This document shows, one piece after another, positions 4,103-41,300 of a stretch of DNA of 64,000 nucleotides (positions are counted from its first letter, which is position 1; every line of letters begins with the position of its first letter). The stretch covers positions 32,001-96,000 of the forward strand of contig JBDRPD010000054.1 in assembly GCA_043827405.1 (NCBI GenBank). The letters run 5' to 3'. The notes under the pieces are model-generated. The model was given only the letters and a program-made list of their open reading frames with translations. It was not told where the DNA came from and searched no databases. Both the position numbers and the translations under genes were made by a program. This DNA is from Elusimicrobiota bacterium (GTDB lineage Bacteria > Elusimicrobiota > Elusimicrobia > UBA1565).

Positions 4103-6460
4103 ATGCGGAAAAACAAGCTCAAGCAGCCCCGCTGGACTCTCAAATTTCTCATCAAGCGCTACGGCATGCTGATCGCTCCGCTATGCATCTGGGCATATGT
4201 GATGCTGGCGATCCTAATGTCCGCGCCGACCATTAATGCCGCGGAACCCCCCGTCACCGGCACCTTTATCGAGCAGTACGGGCGCGCCTACGGGCTGTCG
4301 ACCGACGGCCGCGGCGGCATCTTCTATAAGAAAGAGGGAGTTCGCGAGGCTTTGGCTTTTCAGCCTAAGATGCTCAACGGCGCGGTTCTCGACCGGCTGC
4401 ACCTGCTCACGGCGAAGATCGCGGAGCAGAATCCGGACGAGGCTCTGGTCCCGGTGCTGCAGACCTTGCTGCGGCCGACCTTGGGTGAAGTGAACCGCCT
4501 TAACGGCAAGCTCCTTTATGTGAAGAAGGACGGCGTCCTCCAGCTGACGCAGTTCGGCCGCAATATGCTGATGGACCTGCTGACCGCGCAGGATGGGGTC
4601 AACTTTCAAGGGCCGGTGCCGGCGTCGCAGGATGGACTGCCCAAGGTCCGCCGGGAGTCGGTGCTGGAGCGCCTTAAGAAGGAAGGCCAGCTGCTGCATC
4701 TGGCCGAGCAGGCGCGGAGCGCCGGCGGCGAGGTGTTTGATGCGGGAAATGCCGCACCGCAGCAGCTTGTCTATCCTATGGAAGCCTACGGTAAGTGGCG
4801 TAAGCTCGAGAAGGGCAAGGCGGGCGACGTCTACATCGATCCCGAGACCGGAAATATGCGGCTTATCGTTTCCGCGAAGAATGCGGTAGTCTCTGATCGC
4901 TTCAAAGTGCTCGACGGCGAGGAGAACGGCATCTACGAAGAGACCGGTTTGGACGAGAAGCTGATCGCCGCGCATGGCGGGAAAATCGTTCGCGCCATCG
5001 ACAACCTCGTTGAGGTGGATATCTCGAAGGAGCAGGCGGCCGAGCTCGGCCGGGCTCTCGAGGAGCGCGGCGTCCACAGCCAGCCCAATCTGGCCGTGGC
5101 CATGGCGAATGCCGGCCGCGAGATCGCCAAGCAGCGCTTTCCGTTCGCCGGCCTCCTGCCTTTCGGCAAAAACCTGCTCAAGCGTCTGACGGGCGGCGAG
5201 TACAGGATCCAGTCGGACGTCGCCAAGAACCTGCTGCAGGTCGACAAGATGTGGGAAAAGGGCATGGAGGGCGAAGGGACCGTGGTCGGCATCATCGACA
5301 CCGGTCTCGATACCAAGCACCCCGACTTCAAGGACCGGGTGCTGACCTATGTCGACCTGGTCCAGGGCGGCGTCGATGCCGTGGGCCATGGGACGCACTG
5401 CGCCGGCGCGGTCGGCGGCGACGGCAAAGCCTCCGGCGGCAAGTACAAGGGCATGGCGCCGAAAACCAAGTTCGTGATCATCCAGGTGTTCAATTCCTGG
5501 GGCATGGGAGCCTCGGAGATGTCGCTCCTGGCGGCGATGAAGATCGCCAGTTCCCTGCCCAAGAACATCCGGCCCGACGTCCTCAGCATGAGCCTCGGCA
5601 TCGCCGGCCCGGGCGGCCATAACCTGCATTCCACCAGCCTGCTGTCGAACTACATGATGCTGCGCAATAAAGTGTTCCTCTCCATCGCGGCGGGCAACAG
5701 CGGCCCGGAGAAGTATACGGTCGGCGCGCCGGGCAACGCCAAGCATGCCTTGACCGTGACCGGTACGGACAAGCACAAGGAGATTCCCTTCTTCCCGTCG
5801 CGCGGCCCGATTACCAACTGGCCGTTCAAGGAGTACAACAAGCCCGACCTCGCCACCATCGCCGGCGGCGTTACGCGCGGCAATAAGTGCCCCTACGCCC
5901 CGGAAGGCTTGATCGCGGCCAAAAGCGGCGACGAGAAATTCCCGCAGTCAGGCGGGGATGCCTGCGACGCGCCGGGCAATCCCTACTACCGTTACATGTC
6001 CGGCACCTCGATGGCGACTCCTCTCGCCTCGGGGATCGCCGCCGACGTGATCGGCTACCTAAAAGCCAACGGTATCCCCTACACCGCGTCGGAGGTCAAA
6101 GCGCTCCTCATGGAGACCGCCGACGATCTCGGGCGTCCAGCCTATGAGCAGGGGGCCGGCTTCGTCAACGGCGAGCGGCTGGCCAAGGCTCTGGAAGAGC
6201 GGGTCAAGGCCGGTGCCGTCGCCGGCAACGTCGCGCTGATGGTAGCGCGCGACCTGACCGGGTTCCAGAAGTGGTACCTGGAAAAGCATAAAAGCATCGT
6301 AATGACCCAGGCGGGTCTGCTGGACACCAGAACCAACCACCTGGTCCATAACGACGCGGAAGTCGACGCGCTGCGTCAAACGGTAAAGGACGAGTACGCG
6401 AGCAAGCCGCTCCTGGAGCGCATCAAGATCAGGCTGGCGTTCGCGCGGAGGAGCAAGTAA
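4103..6460 (+). CDS. S8 family (subtilisin-like) serine peptidase with N-terminal signal/TM segment and long pro-region
   Basis: Catalytic motifs GIIDTG, GHGTHCAG, AAGNSG, SGTSMATP; GGAGG RBS. Confidence 0.95.
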   Translation: MRKNKLKQPRWTLKFLIKRYGMLIAPLCIWAYVMLAILMSAPTINAAEPPVTGTFIEQYGRAYGLSTDGRGGIFYKKEGVREALAFQPKMLNGAVLDRLHLLTAKIAEQNPDEALVPVLQTLLRPTLGEVNRLNGKLLYVKKDGVLQLTQFGRNMLMDLLTAQDGVNFQGPVPASQDGLPKVRRESVLERLKKEGQLLHLAEQARSAGGEVFDAGNAAPQQLVYPMEAYGKWRKLEKGKAGDVYIDPETGNMRLIVSAKNAVVSDRFKVLDGEENGIYEETGLDEKLIAAHGGKIVRAIDNLVEVDISKEQAAELGRALEERGVHSQPNLAVAMANAGREIAKQRFPFAGLLPFGKNLLKRLTGGEYRIQSDVAKNLLQVDKMWEKGMEGEGTVVGIIDTGLDTKHPDFKDRVLTYVDLVQGGVDAVGHGTHCAGAVGGDGKASGGKYKGMAPKTKFVIIQVFNSWGMGASEMSLLAAMKIASSLPKNIRPDVLSMSLGIAGPGGHNLHSTSLLSNYMMLRNKVFLSIAAGNSGPEKYTVGAPGNAKHALTVTGTDKHKEIPFFPSRGPITNWPFKEYNKPDLATIAGGVTRGNKCPYAPEGLIAAKSGDEKFPQSGGDACDAPGNPYYRYMSGTSMATPLASGIAADVIGYLKANGIPYTASEVKALLMETADDLGRPAYEQGAGFVNGERLAKALEERVKAGAVAGNVALMVARDLTGFQKWYLEKHKSIVMTQAGLLDTRTNHLVHNDAEVDALRQTVKDEYASKPLLERIKIRLAFARRSK

Positions 6461-7095
6461 TGCAAGTCAAAACGTGCGGAGAAAAGTACATGAGAGATGC
6501 CATGAAGCGGGCGGCGCTGCCGTTCTGTCTCGCCGTAATTATGCCGCATGGCGCATCCGCCGCAGCGATGCAGGCGATGCGCGGCAACGCCCATGAGGCG
6601 ATTGCCGCCTTGCAGGTTGGGCTTAAGGACGGCGCATCGCTTGAAGACTCCTCCGGTGCCGGATTCAAGGCGCAGCAGGCGCTTTTGGGCCGCGGTTCGG
6701 GCGGCGTTTCCGTATGCGGCGCGGCCTGCGTCGCGGCGGCGGAGAAGGCATCCGCCGAGAACGTCCCGGCGCTGACGGCCGAAGAGTATGCTCCGGAGCA
6801 CCTGCGGCCGGCGACGGCTGTTCCGCCGCCGGCGGTCCAGCCTGAGAAGCCCTCGGGCGCCGTGACGACGCTCTTGCGCAAGGCCGCCGGCTTTGCCGGC
6901 AAGACCGTGGACCGGATCTCCAAGATGAACAAGGCGGGGAAGGTCGCTTTGCTTGTCGGCTTGCTGGTGGTGGAGGCGGCGGTTATTATCTGGCCGACCC
7001 CGGCCATCACCGTCGCGGTGACCGGGCTGGGCGTGCTCGGGCTCTTCGGCACCGTCCGCGAACTTATCGGCATGTTTCGCCGGGGGCGCCTGTGA
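6460..7095 (+). CDS. Exported hypothetical protein with C-terminal hydrophobic hairpin (true start may be 6490 or 6502)
   Basis: Signal-like segment, GFKAQQ motif shared with the next gene, two C-terminal hydrophobic helices. Confidence 0.7.
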   Translation: MQVKTCGEKYMRDAMKRAALPFCLAVIMPHGASAAAMQAMRGNAHEAIAALQVGLKDGASLEDSSGAGFKAQQALLGRGSGGVSVCGAACVAAAEKASAENVPALTAEEYAPEHLRPATAVPPPAVQPEKPSGAVTTLLRKAAGFAGKTVDRISKMNKAGKVALLVGLLVVEAAVIIWPTPAITVAVTGLGVLGLFGTVRELIGMFRRGRL

Positions 7096-7631
7096 GCCTG
7101 AAAACGGTTCTATTTTTTCTGTTCGCGGTCCGCTTCGGCTTGAGCAGCGCCGCGCAGGCCGCGGTGCCGAACTCGCTGCACCACGGGCTCGCGGCCAAGG
7201 AAGTCCTGAGCATCGAGGCGCTCGCTCCGGCCGGCACGGCCGAGGGGATGTACCATTCGGGCTTTAAGGCGCAGCAGATCATGCAGGGCCTGCAGACCGG
7301 CGACCGGCCGGCGGTCCGTGCCGAGAGGGCGGCTGAGAGCGAGCAGGGCGTCCCTCCGGCGGAGATCGCCCAGAAGGTCAAGGGTTTGAAAACCGGCGAC
7401 GTCCCGCTGCCGGGGCGGGCCGACGGCAAGCCGCCGGCGGAGAAGGGCAAGCTGGACAAGGTCCTCAAGTTCGTGCAGAAGTGGCTGCCCATCGCCATGC
7501 TGGTCTACGGCTCGGTCAATATGATCATCAATCCGATCGGTGCCGCCTCCGGCGCGCTGCGGATGGCGGCGGTGATCGCCGCCGTCGGCACCGCCATGCT
7601 GCTCTATAAAACGATAAAGAAGAAGGGGTAG
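7092..7631 (+). CDS. Exported hypothetical protein, tandem paralog of the previous gene
   Basis: GTGA overlap; signal peptide ending AQA; SGFKAQQ motif; two C-terminal hydrophobic helices. Confidence 0.75.
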   Translation: MSLKTVLFFLFAVRFGLSSAAQAAVPNSLHHGLAAKEVLSIEALAPAGTAEGMYHSGFKAQQIMQGLQTGDRPAVRAERAAESEQGVPPAEIAQKVKGLKTGDVPLPGRADGKPPAEKGKLDKVLKFVQKWLPIAMLVYGSVNMIINPIGAASGALRMAAVIAAVGTAMLLYKTIKKKG

Positions 7632-7636
7632 TCGGG

Positions 7637-8587
7637 ATGGGAAATCGCGATCTGCATGTACATCTGGCGATCTGGGCCGTCGCGCTGGCGTTCTTGACGC
7701 GGCTGGCCGCCGCCGAGACGCCGAGCTTCGACCAGGGCGTGGACGCCGCCGCCGTTATTGAACAAGCGAAGCTCGAGGTCCGGTCGGGACACCGCCGCGG
7801 CGCTCCGGGGCTGGGCTACGGGCGCCCGGTCAGCACCGGCTGGGAGACCGACTGCCGCGTCATTTCCTTCCGTCCTCAGGACGCGCTGGTCGTGGATAAT
7901 ATCCTGCTCGAAAGCGTTCGTTATGAGGAAGTCTGCCGCCGCGGTCCTGACGGCCGTCGGCGTTGCCGCCGGGAGCGGACCGGCAGCGAGCGCCGCCGGG
8001 TGCGCTTTGAGATCAGCGGCCGCGGCGCGATGCTGCCGTGGGAGAAGGATATCTTCCGCGTCTGCCTCGACGGCTACCACTTATGGGCGCGGACGATCGA
8101 GGCCTCTTACGCCTACGAGATGCGGGCCGGCTGGGAGAATAAGGTCGTCGCGGTGGCGGGCGGCAAAGTTCCCACTGAGCCGGATCCCGACGGGCTCTAT
8201 CCGGGCGGCTTCCAGCTTGATCTGGAGAAGGAGAATTTCGAACTCTTCCTCAAAGATCGCTGGGCCCAGCACTATACCGGCGACGAGGTCGTGCTGCGGC
8301 TGGAGCTCAAGGAGCATGTCCCGCTGTGGATTGATCAGACCGTCATTAAGAAGAGTATCGCGCTGCCCGCAGCCGATATGTACACGATCCGCTTCGCGGA
8401 TTTCGCGGCCGAATTCGCGCGCGAGCTCCAACCGGGCAGGCAGTATTACGTGAAATGGGGCTTCCAGCGCATGGGCCACGTATCCCGGCCGACCTGGCAG
8501 GGGGACTGGAAGACGGCGAGGGTCAAGCATGCGCGCAAGCCCGCGCAGGAATCGGGGGCGCTTAGCTCCGGCTTCTTTCGCCGCTAG
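7637..8587 (+). CDS. Secreted hypothetical protein, paralog of 1541..2539
   Basis: Signal peptide, FDQGVD, shared Cys pattern and motifs with 1541..2539. Confidence 0.85.
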   Translation: MGNRDLHVHLAIWAVALAFLTRLAAAETPSFDQGVDAAAVIEQAKLEVRSGHRRGAPGLGYGRPVSTGWETDCRVISFRPQDALVVDNILLESVRYEEVCRRGPDGRRRCRRERTGSERRRVRFEISGRGAMLPWEKDIFRVCLDGYHLWARTIEASYAYEMRAGWENKVVAVAGGKVPTEPDPDGLYPGGFQLDLEKENFELFLKDRWAQHYTGDEVVLRLELKEHVPLWIDQTVIKKSIALPAADMYTIRFADFAAEFARELQPGRQYYVKWGFQRMGHVSRPTWQGDWKTARVKHARKPAQESGALSSGFFRR

Positions 8588-8612
8588 ATTTACCCAACCA
8601 CCACCACCTAAC

Positions 8613-8646
8613 AAGCGCACCCCTTTATGGGGTGCGCTTTGTTTTT
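8613..8646 (+). terminator. Intrinsic terminator of the subtilase operon
   Basis: AAGCGCACCCC-TTTAT-GGGGTGCGCTT followed by TGTTTTT. Confidence 0.85.
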
Positions 8647-8748
8647 AACGACCCGGTCTTTGGTCCTATAAATGAACGGGCCATATTTTTCCGTTTAGCG
8701 TGCTTTTTGGCCCAACCGCTTCCGCGGTATTCCGGCTAAGCTGAAGGT

Positions 8749-10803
8749 ATGAGACGCCTAATAGCTTCCACGCTCGCCGCCGCCGTAATTCTCGCCGCCC
8801 CGGGGCCGGCCGCCCATGCGGTCGTCGCCAAGGCCGTTGTTTCGGCTAACGCCGTATCCGGGGTGGGACAGGTCGGAGCCGGGGGTGCGGCGGTTGGGCT
8901 TAATGGCAAGGCCGGTCTTGATCTGACGCAAATCGGGACGTCATTTTCCTTAAAGAGTACCTTGCCCACCGCCTCGTTCAAGGGGCTGAACGTTCTAAAG
9001 ACCGCTGAGGGGGGGATTTCGGCCGTCAAGTCCGTCGGCATCGTGGCGCATGATTCTGTAGAGACTTCGGTTTCCCCCAGCGCTTCCGTATCCGTTGTCG
9101 CTCCCAAGCAGGATGCTGCCAAGAAGACCGCCATGGGCCGCCTTTCGGCCGCCGTCTCCGGCATACCGCACCTCCTGGGGCTCAAGGGTTCTTCACTCAA
9201 GGCCGCGTCCGGACAAACTTTCGATAATGCCGGCCGGCATTCCGGGACGGCCGTCGCCGCGTCCGCCGACAGTATCGGGCATGCCCGCTCGGGGCTTAAA
9301 GCCGCCGGCAAGTCTAATGTCGCCGCGGATGTTCCCGGCGTGGAAGATGTCGCCGGACGGGCGGAGACGCCCGCCCCGAAGCAGAAGGTTTGGCGCGCCA
9401 TCCGCATCGGGGCGCTGACGGCCATTATTATGCTCGCTGCGGACACCATTATCATGGGGGTCGCCACGCATTTCGGCTACGTCTTCCATCCGAGCTACGA
9501 GATGCCGGCGCTGACCGATCCCGCGGCCTTCGCTGCCCTGGGAGATACGGCGGCGATGATTCTGTCCAAGGTGCAGGAAGTTTTCATGGGGGCGTTCGTC
9601 GCACCGTTTAACGAAGAGGTATATTTCCGCGCCGGCGTCATGGGGCTGGCCGCCCTCGGCGCCACGAGGACGCTCAACGGAGCCGTCAAACTGCTGACCA
9701 AGATCAAACCGAGCCTCGCCAAGCTCCGGGCGTGGATCACTCCGGCGGCGTTCGGCATCGCCGCTACCGAAGCGGCGCTGTTTTTCGCCTTCCTGCATGA
9801 GATGTCGGATCCGATCCTTATCACCATTCGCATTATCCAGGCACTGCTGATGTCTTATCTGTACGTGCGCGAGGGTTTGGTCTCAGGCATGGTGCACCAC
9901 GGGGTGTTCAACGGCCTGGCGATCCTGACGCTGCCCTTTATCTACGCCACAGTCGGCGGGACGACGACGATCTTGACCGGCCCGGCGCTGCTGATCGGAG
10001 CGCTGCTGGCCGCCGCCGCCTATTTGATCTGGAAGTTCACGCGCAAGACGGCGCGCGCGGAAGCGCGCGAGCTGCGCGCCGGGACCCTCGCTCCTTACCG
10101 TCTGAGCGCGCGCAGCAGCACCTGGCTCGGCCGCGTCGGCTGGGGAGCGGTCGCGCTTCTTGCCGGGCTGGCGATGATCCAGCCGGCCGCCGCGGGCATG
10201 GTGATGCTGGGCTCGATGGCGGCGCAGATGGCGCCGGCGGCGCTGGCGCTCACCGCTTACGGCTTCCTGATGAAGAATCTGGAGCGGCGTCAAGGCGCCG
10301 CGGCGGTCGACGCAATCCGCAACCCGCAGGCCTGGTTCCCCATGGGCAACCGCGTTGGCGCCTGGGTCGGCGGAGCCTTCGGTGCGATATATCTCGGCGT
10401 CATCGCCGCATCGTTCCTGCTGCAGGGTGTGATGGCGGCTCTCGCCGGCGCCTCGCTGACGACGATCACCGTCGTCGCCGCCGCGATTCCGGGGGCGATC
10501 TTGGCGGGGATCCTCGCCTACCGCTGGTTCGCCCGCAAGCGCGGGATCTCTCCCTGGGTCTATCTTGCCCAGTACTTCTTTGCGACCATGGCGGCGATGA
10601 TGGCCGCCATGCCCTGGCTGGCCCCGATGCTGATGAAGGTGCAGGAAACGATCGCCGCTTCCGGCATCAACGGGACCATGATCATGCCCGCCGTCGCCTC
10701 GCTCGCCTGGATGATGCCGCTGTTCGTCATTCTCGCCGCCGGGATGACCTGGATCGCGCGCCGCATCATGCGCAGCGGCGTCCCGTCGAAGCCGGCTGAG
10801 TAG
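8749..10803 (+). CDS. CPBP (CAAX/Abi) family intramembrane protease with ~215-aa N-terminal leader and extra TM helices
   Basis: APFNEEVYFRAG, FAFLH and HHGVFN motifs; many TM helices; signal peptide. Confidence 0.85.
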   Translation: MRRLIASTLAAAVILAAPGPAAHAVVAKAVVSANAVSGVGQVGAGGAAVGLNGKAGLDLTQIGTSFSLKSTLPTASFKGLNVLKTAEGGISAVKSVGIVAHDSVETSVSPSASVSVVAPKQDAAKKTAMGRLSAAVSGIPHLLGLKGSSLKAASGQTFDNAGRHSGTAVAASADSIGHARSGLKAAGKSNVAADVPGVEDVAGRAETPAPKQKVWRAIRIGALTAIIMLAADTIIMGVATHFGYVFHPSYEMPALTDPAAFAALGDTAAMILSKVQEVFMGAFVAPFNEEVYFRAGVMGLAALGATRTLNGAVKLLTKIKPSLAKLRAWITPAAFGIAATEAALFFAFLHEMSDPILITIRIIQALLMSYLYVREGLVSGMVHHGVFNGLAILTLPFIYATVGGTTTILTGPALLIGALLAAAAYLIWKFTRKTARAEARELRAGTLAPYRLSARSSTWLGRVGWGAVALLAGLAMIQPAAAGMVMLGSMAAQMAPAALALTAYGFLMKNLERRQGAAAVDAIRNPQAWFPMGNRVGAWVGGAFGAIYLGVIAASFLLQGVMAALAGASLTTITVVAAAIPGAILAGILAYRWFARKRGISPWVYLAQYFFATMAAMMAAMPWLAPMLMKVQETIAASGINGTMIMPAVASLAWMMPLFVILAAGMTWIARRIMRSGVPSKPAE

Positions 10804-10884: not shown

Positions 10885-11868
10885 CTACTTATGCCAAAAC
10901 CAAGTCTCGTAGACGAAGGCGCCTTCCGCCTGCAGCTTCTTCTTCACCTCGACGACATCGGTCTTCGCCGGCGGCTTGATCTTCCGGCTGTCCAGTTTCT
11001 TGCGCACTCCGGCCACGCCCATCTTCTTGAAGCCGATGGCGGAGTCGAGATCCTTGCGCGCCAGGCTGACCGCGCGCTCGCCCTCGAACTCCGCGATCTT
11101 ATTGGGCGCGGCTAGGATATAGAAGTATTCCTTGCCGGTGGTGTCGTCGAGAAACAGGACCTCCTCGTTGCTGGGGACCCATAGCGCGGTCCCCGCCGCC
11201 ACGGGGTTGGCGGCGGTGTTGAAATCCGCGTTGGGAAAGAGCCGGTAGGACTTATTGAGCGCATCCACCTGATAGATGTAAATGAAGCTGGTATCGCTGG
11301 GCTTTAAATAGACGGCGTAACCGTCGCCGGACTTTAGGACGCTGCCGTCGCTCAGCGCCTGCATCTTCTTGTCGGCGTCCTCATAGTAGAAGCCGATATC
11401 CACGGACAGTTTAATGTTCTTCTCGGCGGATATCCTTTCGTATTCCTCCTTGGGAATCTTCAGCAGCACCGACGCCTGGTAGCGGTTCTTTTTCCGCCGC
11501 ACGTACCAATTTTCTGCGATGGCGCCTTTTACGACGGCTTTGATCCGTATCTGGCTGCTGCTCTCGATATCGGTCTTCTCGCTGACCTTGCCCTCGGCAC
11601 TGGAGTAAGCCTCGTAGATTCTGTTGAGCGAATCGATGTCCGTTTTGCAGTAACGGACGAATTCCCGCGTCGCCTCGGCCATCGCCTCATCGCGGGCTGC
11701 CCGCTCGTCCTGTTGCGGGCGGGAATGACCCACGGAATAGATATGCTCCTTGTCCGGGATGATCGTCTTTTCGAGCCAGTCCGGTTCCGCCGCCTGCGCC
11801 GGCGACCACGCCGCAAGCATGGCGGGCAGGAGAAGGATCGATACGCAGCGTAAAATTTTAGAACCCAT
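10885..11868 (-). CDS. Exported protein with LPP20-like N-terminal domain and DUF4384-like C-terminal domain
   Basis: Signal peptide ending AQA; YSVGHS..ARDEAMAEATRE (LPP20-like); LKSGD..YIYQVD..RLFPN..LFLDDTTGKEYFYILA (DUF4384-like); GAGGAAGG RBS before ATG 11868. Confidence 0.75.
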   Translation of the reverse strand: MGSKILRCVSILLLPAMLAAWSPAQAAEPDWLEKTIIPDKEHIYSVGHSRPQQDERAARDEAMAEATREFVRYCKTDIDSLNRIYEAYSSAEGKVSEKTDIESSSQIRIKAVVKGAIAENWYVRRKKNRYQASVLLKIPKEEYERISAEKNIKLSVDIGFYYEDADKKMQALSDGSVLKSGDGYAVYLKPSDTSFIYIYQVDALNKSYRLFPNADFNTAANPVAAGTALWVPSNEEVLFLDDTTGKEYFYILAAPNKIAEFEGERAVSLARKDLDSAIGFKKMGVAGVRKKLDSRKIKPPAKTDVVEVKKKLQAEGAFVYETWFWHK

Positions 11869-11893
11869 TTCAGCCTTCCTCAATACGCGAGAT

Positions 11894-14800
11894 TCAGCGC
11901 CCCATTAACACGAATGCCGACCAATAAAACGGATGCTCGTAGCCGTCGCGCCGGATGGCGCTGCGCGCCAGGCGCAGCGCCTCGGCAGGCTCCTTGCCGT
12001 CCTTCAGCCGTGCGAAAAACTCCCCGGCCAAGGCCACTGTCGCGTCCTCCGACACCGACCATAGGCTGATGAGGACATTGGCGGCCCCGGCGTACTGGAA
12101 CGCCCGCCCCATTCCCATCACCCCTTCGCCCGACACGTTCTTTCCCATTCCGGTATCGCATGCCGTCAGCGCGGTCAGTTCCGCGCGCATCTTGAGCCCC
12201 ATCACCGAGCCCATGGTGAGGAAGCCGTCGACTCCTTCGGCGTTGCCCACTTGATTGAGAACCAGCGCCGGCTGGCGCACATACGGCACGGCCCCGTCCA
12301 ATATGCCGTGGGTACCGAAGACAATGTAACGGTAGCTCTCCAGCGGCATCTTAAGCACGGCGTCTTCCCGTGCCTCCTCGCCCGCGATCACGGCGGCCTC
12401 GTCTCCGAACAGCTCCTTGAGTCGACGCCCGATCTCGGCGGTCTTTTCCAGTCGAGGGAACATCGCGTCGACGGCGTCGCCAGGCGCCGCGGCGCGCTGT
12501 GCGCCCCGGCGCCGAGTCCCGCCGACGCCCATCTTCTTCCACTGCGCGATCGCGTTCAGCTGTTGTTTCGCGACGGCGCTCGGCGTGCGCTGCGCGAGAG
12601 CCGCGGCACGGCTATCGGCGGGAGAGAAAACCGGATCAACTACCGCGAGCGCGGCATGGGACTGCGCCCAGCCCTTATTGAGCGTGCGCAGCAGGCTCAG
12701 CGAGGTGGCAGACTGAGCGTAGCTCACGGCAAAACGGTCGCCGAGATACTTCACCCCGATGGGGAAGGGGCCGTGCTTCCCTTCGCCGATCTTTTCGACT
12801 TTGGGAAGCGAGATCGGCAGCGACTCGAAAGGAAGGACGCTAAGCGCCTCATCCGGCACGATGATCAGCCGCGCTCCGGCGGGCAGCTTTTGCAGCTCGT
12901 CCGCAAACAGCAGATCGTGAAGTTTTTTGCCGGCCGCGGCGTCGTATTTCGCCAGATCCATTGCCGAACCCGCTTCCACGAAGGCTTGGCGATATTGGTC
13001 GACCGCCTGCGCTAGCTGCCGGCGCGAAACCTTAATCCGGCGCACCTGCAAAGACTTGTCCTTGCCGCTGAGGATGAAAAGCAGCGTTTCAGTCTCCGTC
13101 ACCTCGAACTCCGCCAGCGTCTCGTCGGCCGCCAGCGCGACATCCGCTATCGCGACGGGTTCTGGATATTTGACGGCAGCGTATTCCGGATGATCGGCGC
13201 GCAGCTGCTCGATGAGTTTGGCGCGCGACCGCATCAAGCCCTGCAGCTCTCGCTCAAGCTCCTGGTATCGGTCGGTTTCCTTCTTCTCATATGCCGCGTC
13301 CATTTGCGTGTAGACGAACGCGAGCTTGTTCTCCAATTCCACCTCCCGCTTGCCGACGGCGGGCGGGATGCTGGGCGCAGCCTCGCCGTGCCGGCTGGAG
13401 ATCGACTCCGCCAGCAGCCGCCCGCGGGTGAACTCGGCGTAGTAGAATGCGCCCCTGTTCTCTGCCGATGTGCGCGGTGCCGTGCGGACCAGTCCTTCAT
13501 AGGCTTCCAGGCGGCGGAAACCCAGATCGCTGGCGCCGAAAAAACCCGCGCGCTGCGGCCCGGTCAGCGTCGAGCGCATTCGCTCGATCAGCTCGCTCGC
13601 CTTAAGAAAATATTTGAATGCTGAGGCTCGATCATCGAGCCCTTCAAAGGCCAGCCCTAAACCCGTATAGTTGGCGAACAGCTCGACGCTTCTCCGGCGG
13701 GTTTCGGTAGTGGCAAGCGTCTCCATGAAGCTCTTTTTCGCCTGGGCAAAATCCTCCTTCGCTAGGTAGTAGCGCCCCAAACGCAGCGGCGACTGCGCGC
13801 GGGAGTAGATCGCGAAGGCTTCCTCCAGCTCTCCGCGCGCGAAATGTACGTCGCCGACCATTAGCTCCGCGTGCCAGGTGGGCGCGTCGCTCTCTTTCTG
13901 CAGCGCTATCATTTTATTGTAGTGCTCCAAAGCCTGCGCGTATTCGCCCGTATCCAAGAGGATGTTCCCAAGATTGCCAAGCGCCATGGCCTGACTGTCC
14001 TTATCGCCTATTTCCCGTGCGATTTGCAGCGCCTGCCGTTGCTGCTTTAAGGCCGCGGGATAGTCGCCGATTTTGTGATAGACGTTTCCCATGTTGATAT
14101 GGACGGCTGCGACGCTGCGTTTATCACCCCGGTCGCTGTGGATCTCGAGCGCCTGCCGGAGATGCTGCAACGCCTTGGGAACGTTGCCGATGCTGACATA
14201 GGTGGTTCCGATATTGCTGAGGACCGCCCCTTTACCTTTTTTGTCGTTCATTTCGTTGTGAATGGCCAGTGCCTTCTGATACTGCTCCAGCGCAAAAGGA
14301 TACTCGCCCATCGCCGATAGAACGTTCCCCATATTCATAAGCGCTATGCCCTGGCCGTGCTTATCGCCAAGGTCGCGCGCGATCCACATTGCCCGCATAT
14401 GGTGGTCGAAGGCCTTCCGATATTGACCTAGTTGACGATAAACGAGTCCAAGGTTGTCTAGAGAAACTCCTTCAGCCTCCTTATCCTTCGTCTTCTGCGC
14501 GATCTCCAGCGCTTGCTTGCCGTTCTCCAGCGCCTGCTGATTGTCTCCCATGCGCTGCCGGACAAGCCCGATATTGTTGAGCGCGACGCCCTCGCCTTCC
14601 TTATCGCCCAGGGCGCGATGGCTTTCCAGCGCCTGGCGGTGATATTTGAGCGCTTGATCGAACTCGCTGCGGTCATTATGGACATTCCCTAAGTCGGTGA
14701 GAGCGGCTGCCTCCCCCTTTTTGTCGCCCTGGCCGCGGTGAATCTCCAGCGCTTGCCGGTAGAGTCCCAGTGCCGCGGGATAATCGCCGAGACGCTTTTG

Positions 14801-15265
14801 TGCGTAGCCGGCGGCACGAAGGCTATTCGCTTCTTTTTTCTTCTTACCGAGCTCGTGGTAAATTTGTGCCGCCTGTTTGCGGGACTCAAGCATCTTGGGG
14901 AAATCGGATTGACGCTTATAGATGGCCGCGCAGTTTTCGAGAGCGACCGCTTCGGTGCCCTTGTCGCCGCGGTCGCGCGCATTTTCCAGCGCCTGATAGT
15001 GGCTTTTCAGCGCTCGGGGATAGTCGCCCATGTCCTGATAGGCGACGCCGATGGCGCCGAGAAAAAAGCCCATGGCCTGGAGGTCCTGTTTGTCTTTGGC
15101 TTTCTGCAGGCCGGTCTCCCAGAGCTCAAGGGCGCCCTTGACGTCAGAAGCTTTGTGTCTCGCCTGACCCCGCAGATAAAGAGCCCTTAGGTCTTGACCA
15201 TACGCGGATACGGAAAGACCGACCGCGACAAGCAATAGCGCCGTCATGCGAAGTGATTTTATCAT
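11894..15265 (-). CDS. Exported TPR-repeat plus CHAT (caspase/HetF-like) protease
   Basis: Signal peptide from ATG 15265; about ten 40-aa TPR-like repeats; CHAT motifs LIIVPD, FGTHG (His), LTACDTG (Cys), SLWSV, HPFYWSAF. Confidence 0.93.
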   Translation of the reverse strand: MIKSLRMTALLLVAVGLSVSAYGQDLRALYLRGQARHKASDVKGALELWETGLQKAKDKQDLQAMGFFLGAIGVAYQDMGDYPRALKSHYQALENARDRGDKGTEAVALENCAAIYKRQSDFPKMLESRKQAAQIYHELGKKKKEANSLRAAGYAQKRLGDYPAALGLYRQALEIHRGQGDKKGEAAALTDLGNVHNDRSEFDQALKYHRQALESHRALGDKEGEGVALNNIGLVRQRMGDNQQALENGKQALEIAQKTKDKEAEGVSLDNLGLVYRQLGQYRKAFDHHMRAMWIARDLGDKHGQGIALMNMGNVLSAMGEYPFALEQYQKALAIHNEMNDKKGKGAVLSNIGTTYVSIGNVPKALQHLRQALEIHSDRGDKRSVAAVHINMGNVYHKIGDYPAALKQQRQALQIAREIGDKDSQAMALGNLGNILLDTGEYAQALEHYNKMIALQKESDAPTWHAELMVGDVHFARGELEEAFAIYSRAQSPLRLGRYYLAKEDFAQAKKSFMETLATTETRRRSVELFANYTGLGLAFEGLDDRASAFKYFLKASELIERMRSTLTGPQRAGFFGASDLGFRRLEAYEGLVRTAPRTSAENRGAFYYAEFTRGRLLAESISSRHGEAAPSIPPAVGKREVELENKLAFVYTQMDAAYEKKETDRYQELERELQGLMRSRAKLIEQLRADHPEYAAVKYPEPVAIADVALAADETLAEFEVTETETLLFILSGKDKSLQVRRIKVSRRQLAQAVDQYRQAFVEAGSAMDLAKYDAAAGKKLHDLLFADELQKLPAGARLIIVPDEALSVLPFESLPISLPKVEKIGEGKHGPFPIGVKYLGDRFAVSYAQSATSLSLLRTLNKGWAQSHAALAVVDPVFSPADSRAAALAQRTPSAVAKQQLNAIAQWKKMGVGGTRRRGAQRAAAPGDAVDAMFPRLEKTAEIGRRLKELFGDEAAVIAGEEAREDAVLKMPLESYRYIVFGTHGILDGAVPYVRQPALVLNQVGNAEGVDGFLTMGSVMGLKMRAELTALTACDTGMGKNVSGEGVMGMGRAFQYAGAANVLISLWSVSEDATVALAGEFFARLKDGKEPAEALRLARSAIRRDGYEHPFYWSAFVLMGR

Positions 15266-15561
15266 AGGGTTCTTCCGCCCTCGGGGGCAACTCCAAATAC
15301 CAACCATATTGTACTGTACGCGATGTTATCTTAGAGCGCAATGACCTTCGGGTCCAACGGTCCGTCTGGGCAGGGGTCAAATGCGGAGCGCGTTATAGAC
15401 CGTCGCACCAGAACGAATAGCGCGGCCTGCGAAGTACAATTCTGCAACCGGCTGCGAGCCGGCCCGTAAGGGCGTCTATTACCGCCTTTGGAGCGCCGCC
15501 GCCAAGCAGCAATAGCGCGCCGCTGTTCGCCATTCGCCGGCAGGAATGGTAGGATAGTGTT

Positions 15562-16257
15562 ATGCCACTCATGCTCCCCGCTATCAAGGTCTACGATCTC
15601 ATCAAGAACGAAGCCAACGGCGCGATCTACGCCGTCAAAGAGATTAGATCCGACGGCTTGTTTCTCGTTAACGAGGTGGGCGCCGATGTGAAGTTCCGCT
15701 TCATCGGACAATTTGTCGCCTGCACCGAGGAGGAAGCCCGGAAGTCCGCCTATTTGGTCGACATTGCCCGCTCGCGGCTGATGCCGAAGAATACCGGCGC
15801 TAGGAAGCTCACCGGCAGGAAGGTCGGCATCGACGAGAGCAAGATTCGCGCGCAGTTCGAGCAGTACGAAGAGGGTCTCAAGCAGCAGAACACCTCCGAC
15901 CATGAGAACTTCATGGAGTTCTGGGCGAAGCTTATCAAGTTGGTCGGCGATTTCCCCGGGCGGTCATGGGGGATGCGCACTTCGGCCAAGTTCGGCCTCA
16001 ACCCTTGTCTTTACACCGCTAATGAGACCGGTAAGCGCACGGTATTGGCGCATCTGTGGGGAAGCGGTTCGATGGAGGAGGGGCTTCACATCCTTATGGT
16101 CGGCAAGTACATGAAAAGCGAGTTCAAGCCCTTGTTCCCCAAGTCGACGTTCTTCTACGGCAAGGGCCCGTCTGTGGACGTTCCGTATCCGGCCTTGAAG
16201 GAAGGCCAAGGCGAGGAATACCTGAACTGCTTCAAAGGGCTCTTGGGCTTGAGCTAA
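15562..16257 (+). CDS. Hypothetical protein
   Basis: 231-aa ORF with protein-like composition and AGGA RBS; no motif recognised. Confidence 0.7.
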
Positions 16258-23197: not shown

Positions 23198-23880
23198 CGC
23201 GCGCGCAAAGCGAGGCGATGCGGCGGGCGATGAAGGCGACGCCGATGTTTTCGGCGCTGGATAATAAATCCCTGGACCGCTTCATTAAGCGGAGCATGTC
23301 CCATTGTTTCCCCGCGGGCGAGGTTATCGTTGAGCCGGGCGAGCGCGCCGACCGTTTTTTTGTCGTCCTCTCCGGGAGCGTCAAGGTCTATAAGATTTCA
23401 CCGCGCGGAGACGAGCAGGTCCTGCATGTCTTCGGCGCCGGAAATACGTTCGGCGAGGCGGCGATGTGGATGGGGGGGAAGTTCCCGGCTTTTGCCGAAG
23501 CCGTGGAAGAAAGCCTGCTGCTGACCGTTCCTCAGACCGTGCTGCGCCAAGCAGTGGCCGATGATCCTGATCTAGCGCTTGGTATTATGGCGGGGCTGTC
23601 GTCCAAGCTGCGGGAGTTTGTACGGCTTATTGAAGACCTTTCACTCAAGGAGGTCCCCGCCCGCCTGGCCGGCGTACTGCTGCAGGAAGCGGAGTCCGCC
23701 GGCGCGAAGAAATTTAGGATGCGTCAGACCAAGCGGCAGCTTGCCGCCCGCATCGGCACCATCGCCGAGACCCTGAGCCGCGCGCTCAAGAAGCTTAAGG
23801 CCGCCGGCCTCATCGATGTGCAGGGGGCCGAGTTTACGATTCGCGACGCCGCGGCGCTCAAGAAGCTCTCCGAGTCCTAG
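23194..23880 (+). CDS. Crp/Fnr family transcriptional regulator, HcpR-like
   Basis: cNMP-binding domain (GSVKVYK, FGEAA), HTH IGTIAETLSR; ATGA overlap with the previous gene. Confidence 0.88.
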   Translation: MTRAQSEAMRRAMKATPMFSALDNKSLDRFIKRSMSHCFPAGEVIVEPGERADRFFVVLSGSVKVYKISPRGDEQVLHVFGAGNTFGEAAMWMGGKFPAFAEAVEESLLLTVPQTVLRQAVADDPDLALGIMAGLSSKLREFVRLIEDLSLKEVPARLAGVLLQEAESAGAKKFRMRQTKRQLAARIGTIAETLSRALKKLKAAGLIDVQGAEFTIRDAAALKKLSES

Positions 23881-25184
23881 CGGCCGCGGAGCACGACGTC
23901 CGATGCACTGTGGTAGGTCGGGGTCTGCTCGCGGTTCTGCAGACGGGCCTCGTCCTGGACCTTGGGCTTGAGATAGTCGTAGAGGCTCTTGGTCGTCACG
24001 CTTCCCCTGCTGTCTTTGGCCTCGCCGTTAAGTCCCTTGAGGAGGAAATAGGTGAAGATGCCGTGGCCTTCTTCCTTGAGCGTGGTCGTGATCTCATTGC
24101 CGGAAGCCGCCGTCAGCAATGTAAGCTTGCCGCTTGGAGCCTGCCCCATATCGATCTGCGTTACCAATGGACGCGCTCCTGCGGCGAGGACCGAACGGCC
24201 TCCGGCGCCGGAAAAACAGGCGTCGAGGGCGACGACGATTTGCTTGGCTTTGAGCCCGTTTAAAGAGGCATAGAGATGTTCTACGGAATAGGCGGTCGTC
24301 TTGAGAAATTGAGCGTCCCCGTCCCATGGGACGAGGTAGGCTTTCCCCGTGGCGGGATCGGGCGCGCCGTGCCCCGAAAAATAGAAGAACACGTTTGAGT
24401 TCGGCTTGACGTTGAGCGGCAGCCACTCTTCCAGATACTTCCGAAGCCCCGTGCGGGTCGCGTTCTCGCCCGTCAGCAGCACCACGTGACGCTGGGGATA
24501 GCCCATCGCGGACAAGTGTCTCGCCATGGCCGCGGCGTCGCGTTCGGCGAACTGCGCAGCGGGAAGGTCTTTGTAGTCGTCGATGCCCACGACAAGAGCG
24601 AAGTCATCCGGACGCTCCGCCAGCTTGAATTTGGGATGGTCCATGTCGGACGTGAATTGCTTCGGGGGCGCGGGATCGGCAGCGACGGGCGCGGGCGTCT
24701 TTCGGGCCAGCCGGGCGGATCTTTTTGCCGCGAGTTCCGAGTAGGCCGGTGTCCCCGGTCCCAGGGCCCGCGCCAGGTCGGCCGCGATGAAGTCTCCGTT
24801 AACGCAGTATTTGTCGAATCCCTTACAGCGCGACTTGCCCGAATAAAGCCTTTTTCTGGTGTAGGCCGAGGTCGCCGTCACGTCCGGAAACATCGCGCTG
24901 GGGCTGAGGGTGAACTTGCCCATATTGTTTGTGATGGAAACGAAGACGTCGACGTCTTGCGCCTGGAAAGATCGGACGGCTTCCACGGAAGCGAAGATGT
25001 TGGCCATCCGCATCTTCTCCGCGGCTTCCTCGTTGAACCCTTCCTCCGGGCGGATGGGAAGAATACCCAGGGATAGATCCACCGGCTCGGGCGGCGGTAA
25101 GCCCGGCTGATGCGGTCCTCCCCCGGCGGCGCAGCCGCATAGGGCCGCGGCAAGCAATACTAGGAAAAACGGGGGGATGTTCAT
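23877..25184 (-). CDS. Caspase-like (peptidase C14) lipoprotein
   Basis: Lipobox-like LCGC; ALVVGID, FYFSGHG (His), LDACFSG (Cys), HGIFT, EQTP; AGGAG RBS. Confidence 0.9.
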   Translation of the reverse strand: MNIPPFFLVLLAAALCGCAAGGGPHQPGLPPPEPVDLSLGILPIRPEEGFNEEAAEKMRMANIFASVEAVRSFQAQDVDVFVSITNNMGKFTLSPSAMFPDVTATSAYTRKRLYSGKSRCKGFDKYCVNGDFIAADLARALGPGTPAYSELAAKRSARLARKTPAPVAADPAPPKQFTSDMDHPKFKLAERPDDFALVVGIDDYKDLPAAQFAERDAAAMARHLSAMGYPQRHVVLLTGENATRTGLRKYLEEWLPLNVKPNSNVFFYFSGHGAPDPATGKAYLVPWDGDAQFLKTTAYSVEHLYASLNGLKAKQIVVALDACFSGAGGRSVLAAGARPLVTQIDMGQAPSGKLTLLTAASGNEITTTLKEEGHGIFTYFLLKGLNGEAKDSRGSVTTKSLYDYLKPKVQDEARLQNREQTPTYHSASDVVLRGR

Positions 25185-25250
25185 CGCTCCTTGCGCAAAG
25201 ACCACGAACGGATTCGTGACTAGCTTATCAAATGAGATGCCCGTCAGGGC

Positions 25251-36737: not shown

Positions 36738-38366
36738 ATGGCGACCAAGACCAAGCAGGCGGCTTTTCATTATCAGGATCCCTTTCCGCTGGGGCCCGAC
36801 AAGACCAAGTACCGGCTTTTAAGCAAGCGCCATGTGCGCACCGCGAAATTTCAGGGCAAGGACGTCCTGGTCGTCGAGCCCGAGGCCCTGACTATGCTGG
36901 CCCGCGAGGCGATGAAGGATATTTCATTCTTCCTGCGGCCCGCCCATCAGCAGAAGGTGGCGGCGATACTCAAGGATCCTAAAGCATCCAAGAACGACAA
37001 GTCCATCGCCCTGGCCATGCTGCGCAATTCGGTAATCGCGGCCAAGGGCGTGCTCCCGACTTGCCAGGATACCGGGACCGCTACCGTCGTGGCCAAGAAG
37101 GGCCAGCAGGTCTGGACCGGCGCCGACGATGCCGAGAGCCTGTCGAAGGGCATCTGGAAGACCTATACCGGCGAGAACCTGCGCTATTCCCAGGTTGCGC
37201 CGCTGACCCTTTATGAGGAAAAAAACACCGGCTGCAACCTGCCGGCGCAGATCGATATTTATGCGACCAAGGGCATGGAGTACAAGCTGCTGTTCGTGGC
37301 CAAAGGGGGCGGCTCCGGCAACAAGACGACGCTGTTCCAGCAAACCAAGGCCCTGCTCAACCCGGCGTCCTTGAAGAAGTTCCTGACCGAGAAAATGAAA
37401 ACCTTGGGCACGGCCGCCTGTCCGCCCTATCACCTGGCCTTCGTGGTCGGCGGTACCTCGGCCGAGACCTGCCTTAAGGTCGTCAAGCTGGCTTCGGCCG
37501 GCTACCTGGACAATCTGCCGACCAAGGGCAATCAGCACGGCCAGGCCTTCCGCGACCTTAAGCTTGAAAAGGAGCTTCTTGAGGCAGCGTACAATATCGG
37601 CTACGGCGCGCAGTTCGGCGGCAAGTATTTCGCGCATGATGTGCGCGTCATCCGCCTGCCGCGTCACGGCGCCTCCTGCCCGGTCGGCATGGGCGTCTCC
37701 TGCTCGGCGGACCGGAATATCCTGGCCAAGATCAACAAGAAGGGAATCTGGCTCGAAGAGATGGAGCGCCATCCGGAGAAACTCATTCCCAAGGAGTTCC
37801 TGAATGCGGTCGAGGAGGGCGTGATCAGAGTGGACCTCAACCGGCCGATGAAGGAGGTCTTGGCCGTGCTGAGCAAGCATAAGGTCACGACGCGCCTCGC
37901 GCTGACCGGCCGGCTGGTGGTGGCGCGCGACATCGCGCATGCCAAGCTCAAGGAGCGTCTGGACGCGGGCCAGGGGCTGCCGCGGTACTTTAAAGATCAT
38001 CCGGTCTACTATGCGGGTCCGGCCAAGAAGCCCGCGGACAAGCCGTCGGGTTCCTTCGGTCCCACCACCTCGGGCCGCATGGATACCTATGTGGACCTGT
38101 TCCAGTCGAAGGGAGCGTCCATGGTTATGCTGGGGAAGGGCAACCGCACCCAGCAGGTGACCGATGCCTGTAAAAAGCATGGCGGGTTCTATCTCGGATC
38201 CGCCGGCGGCGTGGCGGCGCTGTTCGCCGAGAACTGCATCAAGAACGTCGAGGTTATTGATTACCCGGAGCTCGGCATGGAGGCGGTATGGGCGATCGAC
38301 GTCGTCGATTTCCCGGCCGCGATCCTGGTCGACGACAAGGGCAACGACTTCTTCCAGCAGATCTAG
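36738..38366 (+). CDS. Fumarate hydratase class I (Fe-S)
   Basis: [46 protein letters not shown]. Confidence 0.96.
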
Positions 38367-38371
38367 CGGTG

Positions 38372-41300
38372 GTGAGGGGTAGAGCCGTACGACTTGTCGC
38401 GGCCGTCTGCTGGGCAGTACTTCTCGCTGCGGGAGCCGCGGCGGCGGAACGGCCTCAGCTCGTGGTACAGAGCGGGCATACGCGGCAGGTTCGCGGGCTC
38501 GTCTTCACTCCCGACGGCCGGCATCTCGTCACGGCGGGCTACGACCAGGTGGCGCGGCTGTGGGACGTCGAATCGCGGACCGAGCTCCGGACCTACGCCG
38601 GCCATTCCGGCCTGCTGAACACGCTCGGCATCGGCGACGGCGGCCGCATGATAGTTACCGGGAGCGGCGATGGTACGGCCCGGTTGTGGGACCTGGCCAG
38701 CGGCGAGCAGCGGCGGCGGTTTACGACCGGCGAGCTGACCGACCAGGTCTTTGCCGCCGCGCTCGGCCCGGACGGAAAGTACGTCGCCACCGGACATTGG
38801 ATCACCGGCGCCAGTATTTGGGATGCGCAGAGCGGCAAGCGGCTGCATCATCTGCAAGGCCACGCCCGCAGCGATACCATCGCCGCGGAGGTCCATGTCT
38901 ATGGCATCGCGATAACGCCGGACGGCAAGCATGTGCTGACTGCCGGTGATGACGCGACGGCGAGGCTATGGGATATCCGCAGCGGCGAGCAGCGTCGCGT
39001 CTATGAAGGGCATAAGCAGCGGATTTTTGCGCTCGCGGTTTCCGCCGACGGCAAGTACTTCGTGACGGGCGGCTATGATCGCACCGTCCAGTTATGGGAT
39101 CTTGAAAAGAATCGTTCGATCAGTTCTTTTGCCGAGAGCGCCCCCGTTTATTCGCTGGCGTTCAGCCCCGATGGACGCTATGTCGCGGCCGGATTGGAGA
39201 ACGGCAGCGTCAGCGTCTGGGACCTGCAGACGGGAGTCCGGGCGCATACGCTGACGGCCCATGCCAAAATAGCGGGCGCCGTCGCTTTCAGCCCGGACGG
39301 GCGGACGCTCGCCACCGGCGGCGACGATGCCAAGGTCGTGCTGTGGAACGCCGTTGACGGCAAGCGGATCGCGGGGCTGGAAGGCAATGCCCGGCCGATC
39401 GATCAAGCGGCATTCAGCCCGGACGGCAAGCATATCCTTGCCTTGCGCAGCGATCGATCTGCTCGGCTGTGGGATACCCGCTCCGGCAAGGAGCTGCGCA
39501 GCTACCGGGTTCACTGGCTTCAGTTCGACGAGATGTACGAACCGCTGGCCTTTGCTCCCGACGGACGCAGCTTCTTTGTGAACAGTGTAAAACACACTCC
39601 GCGGCGATGGAGCGTGGACTCTCTGGACTTTATTAGTGCTTACCGAGGACATACCACCTACGTAACGACGCTGGCGGTCTCCCCGGACAACCGTCTCCTG
39701 CTTAGCGGCGGACAGGACAGCACTTTGCGGCTATGGGAAGTGGACAGCGGCAAAGAGCTGAAAACTTTGTGGCGACGGGACAGCGGCATCATTAAAGCCG
39801 CCGCCTTCAGCCCCGACGGCAAGCTCGCCGCCGCGGTCAGCCATTACGAACTGCGAATCTGGGATGTCGCGGACGGACGGTTGCTGCATGAGCGCAAGCA
39901 CTCCGAGCAGATGGCTCATGTCTGGTTCAGCCCGGACGGGCGCAATGTCGTGACAGCAGGCGGGCAGTATAAGGTCTCTAAAGTGGTTAAGTGGGACGCG
40001 GTCAGCGGGCAGAAGGTGCGGGAGTATCGAGCCGAGTATCCCGCAGGCGTCTACCGAGCCGCTTTGGCGCCGGACGGCCGGAATTTACTGACCGTCAGCG
40101 GCGACCAGAAGCTGCGGGTTCTGGATCTGGAAACCGGTAATTGGGATCGAGTTCTGTTCGAACTCAGCGTGGATTTCAACTCGGTTTCCATCAGCCCGGA
40201 CGGCAAGTTCGTCCTCACCGGCAGCGCCGACGGCACCGCACGCATCTGGGACTTTAAATCCGGACGCGAACTGTGCCGCTTGGTCTCGGGAAAGCCCGGC
40301 GAATGGGTGGTCGCAACTCCGGAGGGCCTGTTCGATGGTTCGCCCGAGGGGCTCAAGACCCTCTATTGGACGACCGGCGACAAAGCCTACCCGCTGGAGG
40401 CCTTCTCCGAGAACCATTATTCTCCCGGTCTGCTGGCGCGCATCCTCGCCGGCATGGAGATCAAGACCGCGGCGGCACCGGACCTTTCGCAAGGCTTTAA
40501 GGCGCCGCCCAGCATCGAGTTCGTCTCCCCGCGCGCCGGCGCGGCCTTCAGCAAAACCAGCGTCGAGGTCGAGGTGCTGGCACGCGACATGGGCGGGGGG
40601 ATTGATGAGATCCGCCTCTACCACAACGGCAAGGCGCTCGGAGGTTCGGCCCGCGATATCAAGGTCGTCGAGAAGGCCGGGGAGCTGCGGCGTAAATTTC
40701 ACGTCGCGCTGCTGGACGGCGAGAACCGGCTGCGCGCGGTGGCGCTGAGCGGCGAGCGGATAGAAAGCGCGCCCGCCGAGATCGCAGTGACGCTCAAGGC
40801 GCCGCAGAAAGAGGCGGCTTTGCATCTGCTGGCGGTCGGGATCAACAAGTACCGCAACCCGGCGCTGAACCTCAACTACGCCGTGCCCGACGCCAAGGGG
40901 CTGGCCGGCTTCTTCGCCCAGGGCGCGAGCGGATTGTTCCGCTCCGTGCGCGAGCATACGCTCTACGACCAGGACGCCACCAAGGCCGCCATCCTCGCCA
41001 AGCTCAAGGAGCTGGAGAATACGGCGCCCCAGGATGTGGTCGTTGTTTACCTCGCCGGACACGGCGAGAGCTTGGGAAACACCTGGTACTTCCTGCCGCA
41101 CGAGCTGATCTATCCCGAGCGCGAGGACAAGATCAAGGAGGGCGGGCTGTCATCGGCGGAGCTGCAGGAGCGCATCCGCGCCATCGGCGCCCGCAAGGTC
41201 CTGCTGCTGATGGATGCCTGCAAGTCCGGCGGAGCGCTATTGGCCTTTGCTGCCCGCGGCTTCGAGGAGCGCAAGGCTTTGGCCCAGCTGGCGCGCGCCG

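Follow-up and report, generated by a model that had tools for sequence, protein, structure and literature searches.

We analysed a 64,000-nucleotide stretch of the genome of an Elusimicrobiota bacterium (contig JBDRPD010000054.1, positions 32,001 to 96,000; called the window below), in which two adjacent minus-strand genes encode a TPR-CHAT protein of the caspase fold, P0001, and a smaller protein with a DUF4384 domain, P0002. An earlier note on this DNA had pointed out a KKMGV-containing motif in both proteins; it is present at residues 909-918 of the protease and 280-289 of the partner, and the sharing is a real feature. We see an even chance that P0001 is an exported, Met-specific CHAT protease that cuts P0002 at a bond predicted from sequence, M283-G284, and the protease probably also cuts itself at its own predicted bond, M912-G913. 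Whether as a substrate or as an inhibitor, the M-G loop is likely to be recognised by the CHAT active site.

In the genome, KKMGV was confined to P0001 and P0002 among 37,251 six-frame open reading frames. This lone match was not decisive, because a comparable sharing (some 5+1+1 pattern) was found in 41 of 684 adjacent same-strand gene pairs (~6%), although many of these 41 look like paralogues or low-complexity sequence; an exact 5-mer was common to 217 of the 684 pairs. Since a single match is unremarkable, the case rests on conservation of the motif in loops that otherwise vary. The partner alignment comprised 67 rows, the query and 66 homologues, of which one seems to be frameshifted. Of the 67 rows, 65 kept M283 and 65 kept G284, whereas G287 was kept in 58 and K282 in 45, within a loop that was mostly variable. 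On the protease side, 161 CHAT domains were aligned (best search matches and loci, a few near-duplicates included), and the tree placed the query within one clade of 124. Between strand β1 and helix α1, the loop of 121 of these 124 proteases contained a Met, in 86 as M-G; among the 86, G916 was kept in 90% and R918 in 73%, most neighbouring positions reaching 50% or less. The conserved core reads M-G-[VAILMP]-x-G-x-[RK], and P3/P2 vary (KK, KT, KQ, RT, ER, NL). Variable in both families, the lysines were ruled out as a recognition code: of the KKM-G recognition motif proposed earlier, the M-G-x-x-G core is conserved and the lysines are not. The motif was thus conserved in both families, at sites predicted from the models to be exposed and in linked genes, as the earlier note had anticipated. 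A decayed motif was seen in homologues L082, P0194, P0195, P0200, P0204, P0107 and P0110; for L082, a CHAT was found neither in the fetched region nor elsewhere in the genome.

The choice of Met at P1 is independently backed, as far as alignments can tell, by the S1 pocket. Residues MALT1 Asp365, metacaspase Asp95 and gingipain Asp163, on helix α1, form S1 of Arg-cutting enzymes, MALT1 Asp365 binding P1-Arg, and the Leu-specific MARTX protease has Ala47 at the α1 position (PMC4357240). The CHAT consensus L-P-x-T-x-x-E at the start of α1 aligned to L-x-x-A-x-x-D of bacterial C14 peptidases (hhalign probability 92%), and the C14 α1 Asp aligned in turn to MALT1 Asp365 (numbered from Gly416). At this column P0001 has Ile945. 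Glu occupied it in all 37 CHATs outside the clade, and Leu, Ile, Met or Val in all 124 CHATs inside it. The acidic α1 residue of Arg-specific clan CD proteases is therefore absent from P0001, and the adjoining Glu944 is unconserved (38%). Because the pocket has lost the Arg-binding acid and turned hydrophobic, the clade CHATs should cut after Met. Among Glu-type loops of at least 24 residues, R-G or R-S occurred in 18 of 25, as counted by eye and without a chance control. Hidden Markov model alignments to Csx29 did not extend to the α1 position. Neither the pocket rule nor a motif common to a CHAT loop and DUF4384 was described in the literature covered, which took in few subscription journals.

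We then considered whether partner and protease match. A DUF4384 profile search, which recovered fused forms missed by a word search, gave 148 aligned domains. The column of M283 held Arg in 58 rows, Met in 52 and Lys in 10; Gly came next in 118 of the 148, then V/P/I/L, A/G and G. A fast tree of 106 DUF4384 domains, with the motif masked, contained six Arg-Met changes, at least three of them forced. Among 36 linked pairs, all 23 Met partners whose protease could be read (a further one, a broken gene, could not) went with a hydrophobic pocket, all 8 Arg partners with a Glu pocket, and all 4 loopless partners with Glu, after correction by eye of four regular-expression misses in the class assignment (L088, L138, L101, L120). 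Some pairs also had private flank matches in both members (TMAP in L139, LMGVKG in L091, MGA in L010 and L022, TRG in L148). Over 20 locus pairs, identities at P3, P2, P2', P3' and P4' numbered 59, against 44.4 when shuffled overall and 51.8 when shuffled within subfamily (p 0.016); with the addition of 14 pairs, inferred from contigs of equal length, they numbered 94 against 85.3 (p 0.012). In this test kin are not independent, and the Met pairs L137, L138 and L141 and the broken L076 were left out. Co-evolution, as proposed earlier, holds for the P1 class and is weak at the flanks.

A possibility was that two independently conserved motifs just happen to look alike. The ~6% of adjacent gene pairs with a comparable pattern and the weak within-clade co-variation would agree with this, but coincidence does not account for a motif conserved in variable loops of both families, for the switching of class by both together, or for private matches such as TMAP/TMAP and LMGVKG/LMGVKG. 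We regard it as very improbable and largely refuted already.

The genes are often, not always, neighbours. Of 48 Met-type loci, 32 had a TPR-CHAT gene no more than 6 kilobases (kb) from the partner; where each flank spanned 4 kb or more, 10 of 14 loci had one. In this count one row (L105) was misclassed, and L074 and L088 show a protease on longer fetches. No third gene family recurred in more than 3 of the 44 loci plus the window region. At L076 (G295:C1), an intact Met-type partner lies near a CHAT gene that is fragmented, with two stops inside the domain match. The enrichment of the motif in other exported proteins, which the earlier note had put forward as a check, was not found: the next best site in the genome scored 15 against 31-34 for the two known ones, which were themselves part of the training set, and a wider substrate set in the genome was ruled out.

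These observations bear on the main rival to a cut substrate, in which the partner is a dedicated substrate-like inhibitor, of a reactive-loop or securin-like kind, whose M-G loop in S1 holds or traps the protease, the protease copy being auto-inhibitory. The matching of pocket and motif fits this equally well, and so do a module of mostly two genes with no conserved third and a proteome with no other site. Baculovirus p35, a β-sandwich with a reactive loop, may offer an analogy. Furthermore, loops that place a P1 residue in S1 inhibit gingipain and the MARTX protease (PMC4357240). Yet DUF4384 of the same Met or Arg type also occurs in fusions with caspase, kinase, TIR, OmpA and lytic transglycosylase domains and with Csx30, a range that better fits a portable control handle, and partners persist without a neighbouring CHAT. 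Altogether, we find the inhibitor rather unlikely. A cut substrate is favoured because DUF4384 is fused to these domains and to FlgO/CsgG, and is one of the Csx30 C-terminal types.

P0001 has the domain and the catalytic residues of a CHAT protease. Its CHAT domain scored 177 bits against a curated Pfam cut-off of 24, its Pfam content is TPR and CHAT alone, and the catalytic dyad H986/C1036 is intact on a caspase fold. The model of its last 498 residues matched Csx29, DdvA and separase (best E 4e-13). Its sister row in the CHAT tree is labelled Elusimicrobiota. The TPR array is the presumed sensor or regulator. A third, weak CHAT match in the genome was ruled out as a paralogue, being a WD40 plus caspase-like protein. 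The motif sits 74 residues N-terminal of the catalytic His, within the β1-α1 loop, where the model has a helix ending at M912 and then a disordered stretch of low predicted local distance difference test (pLDDT) score. In the model of P0002, a signal helix, an Lpp20-like domain and an Ig-like sandwich larger than the Pfam model follow one another, and the motif falls in a stretch of low confidence (276-285) that follows a short helix and precedes the last strand. Both copies thus lie in low-pLDDT loops directly after a helix. A complex prediction with the last 498 residues of P0001 and the mature partner (score 0.00, mark 0.32) spoke neither for nor against binding. As to the loop helix itself (residues 897-912 of P0001), many clade proteases have two Met-Gly units there; P0001 has lost the first, and one subclade retains a single Met-small unit.

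The position of both copies behind an amphipathic helix raised the possibility that the motif is an uncut docking peptide, bound by the TPR groove or an exosite, and that the partner displaces the protease copy and thereby activates the enzyme on another target. TPRs commonly bind helical peptides, and the doubled Met-Gly units in the helix of many clade proteases would suit such a role. What docking leaves unexplained is why the position that toggles between Arg and Met tracks the S1 residue of the protease, and why P1' is Gly; we consider it unlikely.

As for P0002, the DUF4384 assignment made earlier was confirmed (PF14326, E 2.2e-8; 34.5 bits against a cut-off of 27), and the LPP20 part was found only as a fold: Pfam LPP20 gave no match at E 0.01, and the modelled N-domain resembles Helicobacter pylori Lpp20 (5OK8) at a borderline Z of 8.6. 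Foldseek returned nothing at E≤0.001 for the partner, and DUF4384 profiles had no sequence match among solved structures, Csx30 chains included. The best fold match of the DUF4384 domain (window 10888-11412, minus strand) was the Ig-like AGS-C domain of the Pycsar cyclase 9ARD (Z 8.6, root-mean-square deviation 2.6, 106 residues aligned), barely above generic Ig folds. No partner relatives were found in viral contigs, and plasmids searched with an Arg-type DUF4384 query yielded nothing.

Both proteins look exported, in line with the signal peptides claimed earlier. Judged by eye and by a crude hydrophobicity rule, the N-terminus was signal-like in 89 of the 97 full-length homologues of the protease and in 58 of the 61 of the partner. 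The hydrophobicity rule found no internal membrane or hydrophobic helix in P0001. P0002 has no lipobox; one stands in place of the plain signal peptide in 16 of the 61 homologues. With the same exposed site on two exported proteins, one may imagine that both loops are bait for a foreign protease of a phage, predator or competitor, whose cut switches the module on as an envelope alarm. A periplasmic TPR-CHAT protein, DdvA, does control a defence island (PMC11506125), and the Ig domain of the partner has the borderline AGS-C match just mentioned. A bait gives no reason, however, for the matching change in the pocket of the CHAT itself; moreover, the motif is conserved rather than diversified, and neither a defence-system match nor a conserved defence neighbour was found. 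The defence role suggested in the earlier note received no support in this respect: PADLOC 2023 gave generic TPR models only for P0001 and none for P0002, and there was no viral copy. The bait explanation is, in our opinion, quite unlikely.

Several observations weigh against a Met-specific protease with a cognate cut site in DUF4384. On the CHAT tree the pocket changed once, along a single branch, which gives one instance of agreement between pocket and loop rather than many, and ten other columns also mark the Met clade. Three clade proteases lack the loop Met, and seven Glu-type ones have a Met somewhere in the loop. Co-variation of the flanks is modest, P2' alone being individually notable, and several pairs differ. 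Only two of the eight Arg-type pairs have the motif in the same protease loop; four of the proteases are almost without a loop, and two have R-G in the loop after His. Few Arg-type proteases thus carry the motif in the same loop, so the self-copy in the protease is optional. No CHAT lies close to five Met-type partners whose flanks span 4 kb or more, and in genomes G298 and G223 no CHAT was found at all for a partner without a neighbouring protease. P0002 has no effector domain that would hint at an output. Finally, Craspase sites are read more by structure than by sequence (PMC11106740).

In three further genomes (G006, G297, G299), the partner has no neighbouring protease and an M-G-loop CHAT is encoded elsewhere. 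The two CHATs with R-G after the catalytic His, and not in the β1-α1 loop, are those beside the Arg-type DUF4384 of L101 and L102.

A cut substrate would work as follows. The DUF4384 domain of the partner would offer helix-M-G-x-x-G on an exposed loop as the cognate site, and the copy in the protease would sit in the loop leading into its own S1-forming helix. At rest, the loop of the protease itself would fill or cover the active site; by analogy with gingipain and the MARTX protease, the most likely role of this copy is self-inhibition or self-processing. Binding of a ligand to the TPR array would turn the protease on, a gating that we suggest from the likeness to Craspase (PMC9729208). Once activated, the enzyme would cut its own loop at M912-G913 and the partner at M283-G284. 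The latter cut would unlatch the 44 C-terminal residues of the partner, last Ig strand included, a strand that would then be held only non-covalently, and this unlatching would alter the state of the domain fused in front of DUF4384. This domain is Lpp20-like, presumably of the envelope, here, and FlgO/CsgG, OmpA, caspase, kinase or TIR in relatives. More tentatively, and short of an even chance, DUF4384 may be a portable "cut-here" module for exported CHATs across many bacteria, with an Arg or Met P1 in its loop that is matched to the cognate S1 and often copied into the regulatory loop of the enzyme; cutting of DUF4384 would unlatch the last Ig strand and switch fused caspase, kinase, TIR, envelope or anti-sigma domains.

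For most bacterial caspase-like proteases, substrate and specificity are not known. The present pair yields an exact predicted bond in both substrate and enzyme, a rule, open to test by mutation, in which one residue decides between Arg and Met specificity, and a possible role for a widespread domain of unknown function. If the proposal is true, CHAT signalling would extend beyond the cytoplasm, the one other example found being DdvA, whose self-cleavage is unproven. If DUF4384 is a portable module, proteolytic signalling outside the cytoplasm would have a code that can be read off the sequence, and the DUF4384-type Csx30 of type III-E CRISPR would probably have come from it.

Met-type DUF4384 is fused to a C14 caspase in L137, L138 and L139 (also P0069, P0199, P0227), and at the three loci a Met-clade CHAT gene lies next to the fusion, a possible cascade of two proteases. 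C14 caspases adjoining DUF4384 genes in L147, L151, L105 and L135 have x-R-G-[IL] near the N-terminus, before the catalytic domain; in L147 and L151 this stretch matches the R-G loop of the neighbouring DUF4384. Within the window, an exported-looking WD40 plus C14 caspase (38288-41572, plus strand) has an S-A-R-D-I-x-V stretch, which resembles the T-R-D-I-x-V loop of the other DUF4384 protein of the genome (G000:C39:155014-156006). The two are possibly, judging from these stretches, a second pair, of Arg type and unlinked. The genome (G000) has a large caspase-like repertoire with 18 Peptidase_C14 matches, one of them at ~23880-25250 of the window (minus strand).

Coordinates of the pair are given in the table. 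The earlier note had placed the protease motif at 12518-12541, which covers its first 8 residues, and had the genes on one strand and 26 bp apart; the shared strand was right, and the gap is one nucleotide shorter. The pair is flanked by plus-strand genes (window 4103-10803 and 15562-16257), which include a subtilase, a CAAX-type membrane protease and open reading frames without Pfam match, and none of which recurs beside the protease/partner pair in other loci. A promoter scan gave 3 sites against 1.5 expected, which carries little information.

Table. Features of the TPR-CHAT protease gene and its DUF4384 partner gene (window positions; aa, amino acids)
Feature	Position	Strand	Basis or remark
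Protease gene P0001	15265-11894	minus	Exported TPR-CHAT, 1123 aa; alternative upstream ATG at 15307
Predicted signal peptide, protease aa 1-23	15197..15265	minus	Sequence; crude hydrophobicity rule
TPR array, protease ~aa 25-560	13586..15193	minus	Pfam TPR_12 E 6.7e-69, 7 stretches; boundaries approximate
CHAT (caspase-fold) domain, aa 778-1123	11897..12934	minus	PF12770 E 6.5e-52
Inserted loop, strand β1 to helix α1, aa 877-937	12455..12637	minus	Helix ending at M912, low-confidence stretch after
Protease motif WKKMGVGGTR, aa 909-918	12512..12541	minus	Predicted scissile bond M912-G913; Met codon 12530-12532
Ile945, helix-α1 position at S1 pocket base	12431..12433	minus	Profile alignment chain; pocket role from PMC4357240
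Catalytic His986	12308..12310	minus	THG motif; conservation of 90% or more in alignment A2
Catalytic Cys1036	12158..12160	minus	Invariant, 91/91 rows of alignment A2
Intergenic spacer, 25 nucleotides	11869..11893	minus	Shine-Dalgarno-like GAGGAAGG at 11881-11874
Partner gene P0002, exported	11868-10885	minus	327 aa
Predicted signal peptide, partner aa 1-26	11791..11868	minus	Sequence by eye and crude rule
Lpp20-like domain, partner aa 27-152	11413..11790	minus	VIA-align Z 8.6 (borderline), root-mean-square deviation 3.7, 96 aligned to 5OK8
Full DUF4384 Ig-like β-sandwich, partner aa 153-327	10888..11412	minus	Model; Pfam match spans 178-255 only
Partner motif FKKMGVAGVR, aa 280-289	11002..11031	minus	Predicted scissile bond M283-G284; Met codon 11020-11022
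Last Ig-domain β-strand, partner aa 318-326	10891..10917	minus	Model secondary structure

How does the pair compare with known systems? In Craspase, Csx29 cuts the neighbour-encoded Csx30 after a Met, and DUF4384 makes up one of the groups of Csx30 C-terminal domains (10.1101/2022.08.17.504292). Likenesses are the TPR plus CHAT fold, where P0001 had its best structural matches, the neighbour-encoded substrate, and Met at P1 in the Desulfonema enzyme (10.1101/2022.08.17.504292). The differences are several. No Cas7-11, Csx31 or RpoE was recognised near P0001/P0002 or recurring in other loci, although no dedicated Cas profile search was made. P0001 and P0002 carry predicted signal peptides, whereas the Craspase enzyme is cytoplasmic and has a Cas7-11-binding N-domain. 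The cut predicted here is M-G near the DUF4384 C-terminus, and that of Csx30 is M-K at the start of the C-terminal domain. Craspase sites vary from one orthologue to the next (PMC11106740); the present site keeps its sequence and recurs in the protease. The parallel drawn in the earlier note would extend to Met at P1 and a neighbouring substrate, but is not exact.

DdvA of Myxococcus xanthus is a membrane anti-sigma factor with a periplasmic TPR-CHAT region, for which signal-induced self-cleavage was proposed and not demonstrated (PMC11506125). Like P0001, which it matches in structure (E 3e-10), it is an extracytoplasmic TPR-CHAT with an intact dyad; unlike it, P0001 has no internal membrane helix, anti-sigma domain or adjacent sigma factor, and its motif recurs in a DUF4384 partner that is a separate protein. 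In the Runella gasdermin system a CHAT protease cuts at Leu-Gly and releases a short C-terminal peptide (10.1101/2021.06.07.447441), so that a neighbour is cut after a non-polar residue followed by Gly, as predicted for P0002; P0002, however, combines Lpp20-like and Ig-like domains and is no pore-forming protein, and both members of the pair look exported. Clan CD zymogens such as gingipain RgpB (prodomain Arg126) and the MARTX protease (Leu0) present their own P1 residue on a loop (PMC4357240). They share with P0001 a residue matching S1 specificity on a loop, which in P0001 too may occupy the pocket. The loop of P0001 differs in lying inside the chain, from β1 to α1, and in having a duplicate in the partner protein. 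DUF4384 itself is listed as an accessory domain of orthocaspases (PMC8283722). Collectively, the pair would work like Csx29/Csx30 or the gasdermin CHAT pair and is a member of neither; it is a variant on the known theme of a CHAT plus a neighbouring substrate, and the pocket substitution is the main addition to what the earlier note had described.

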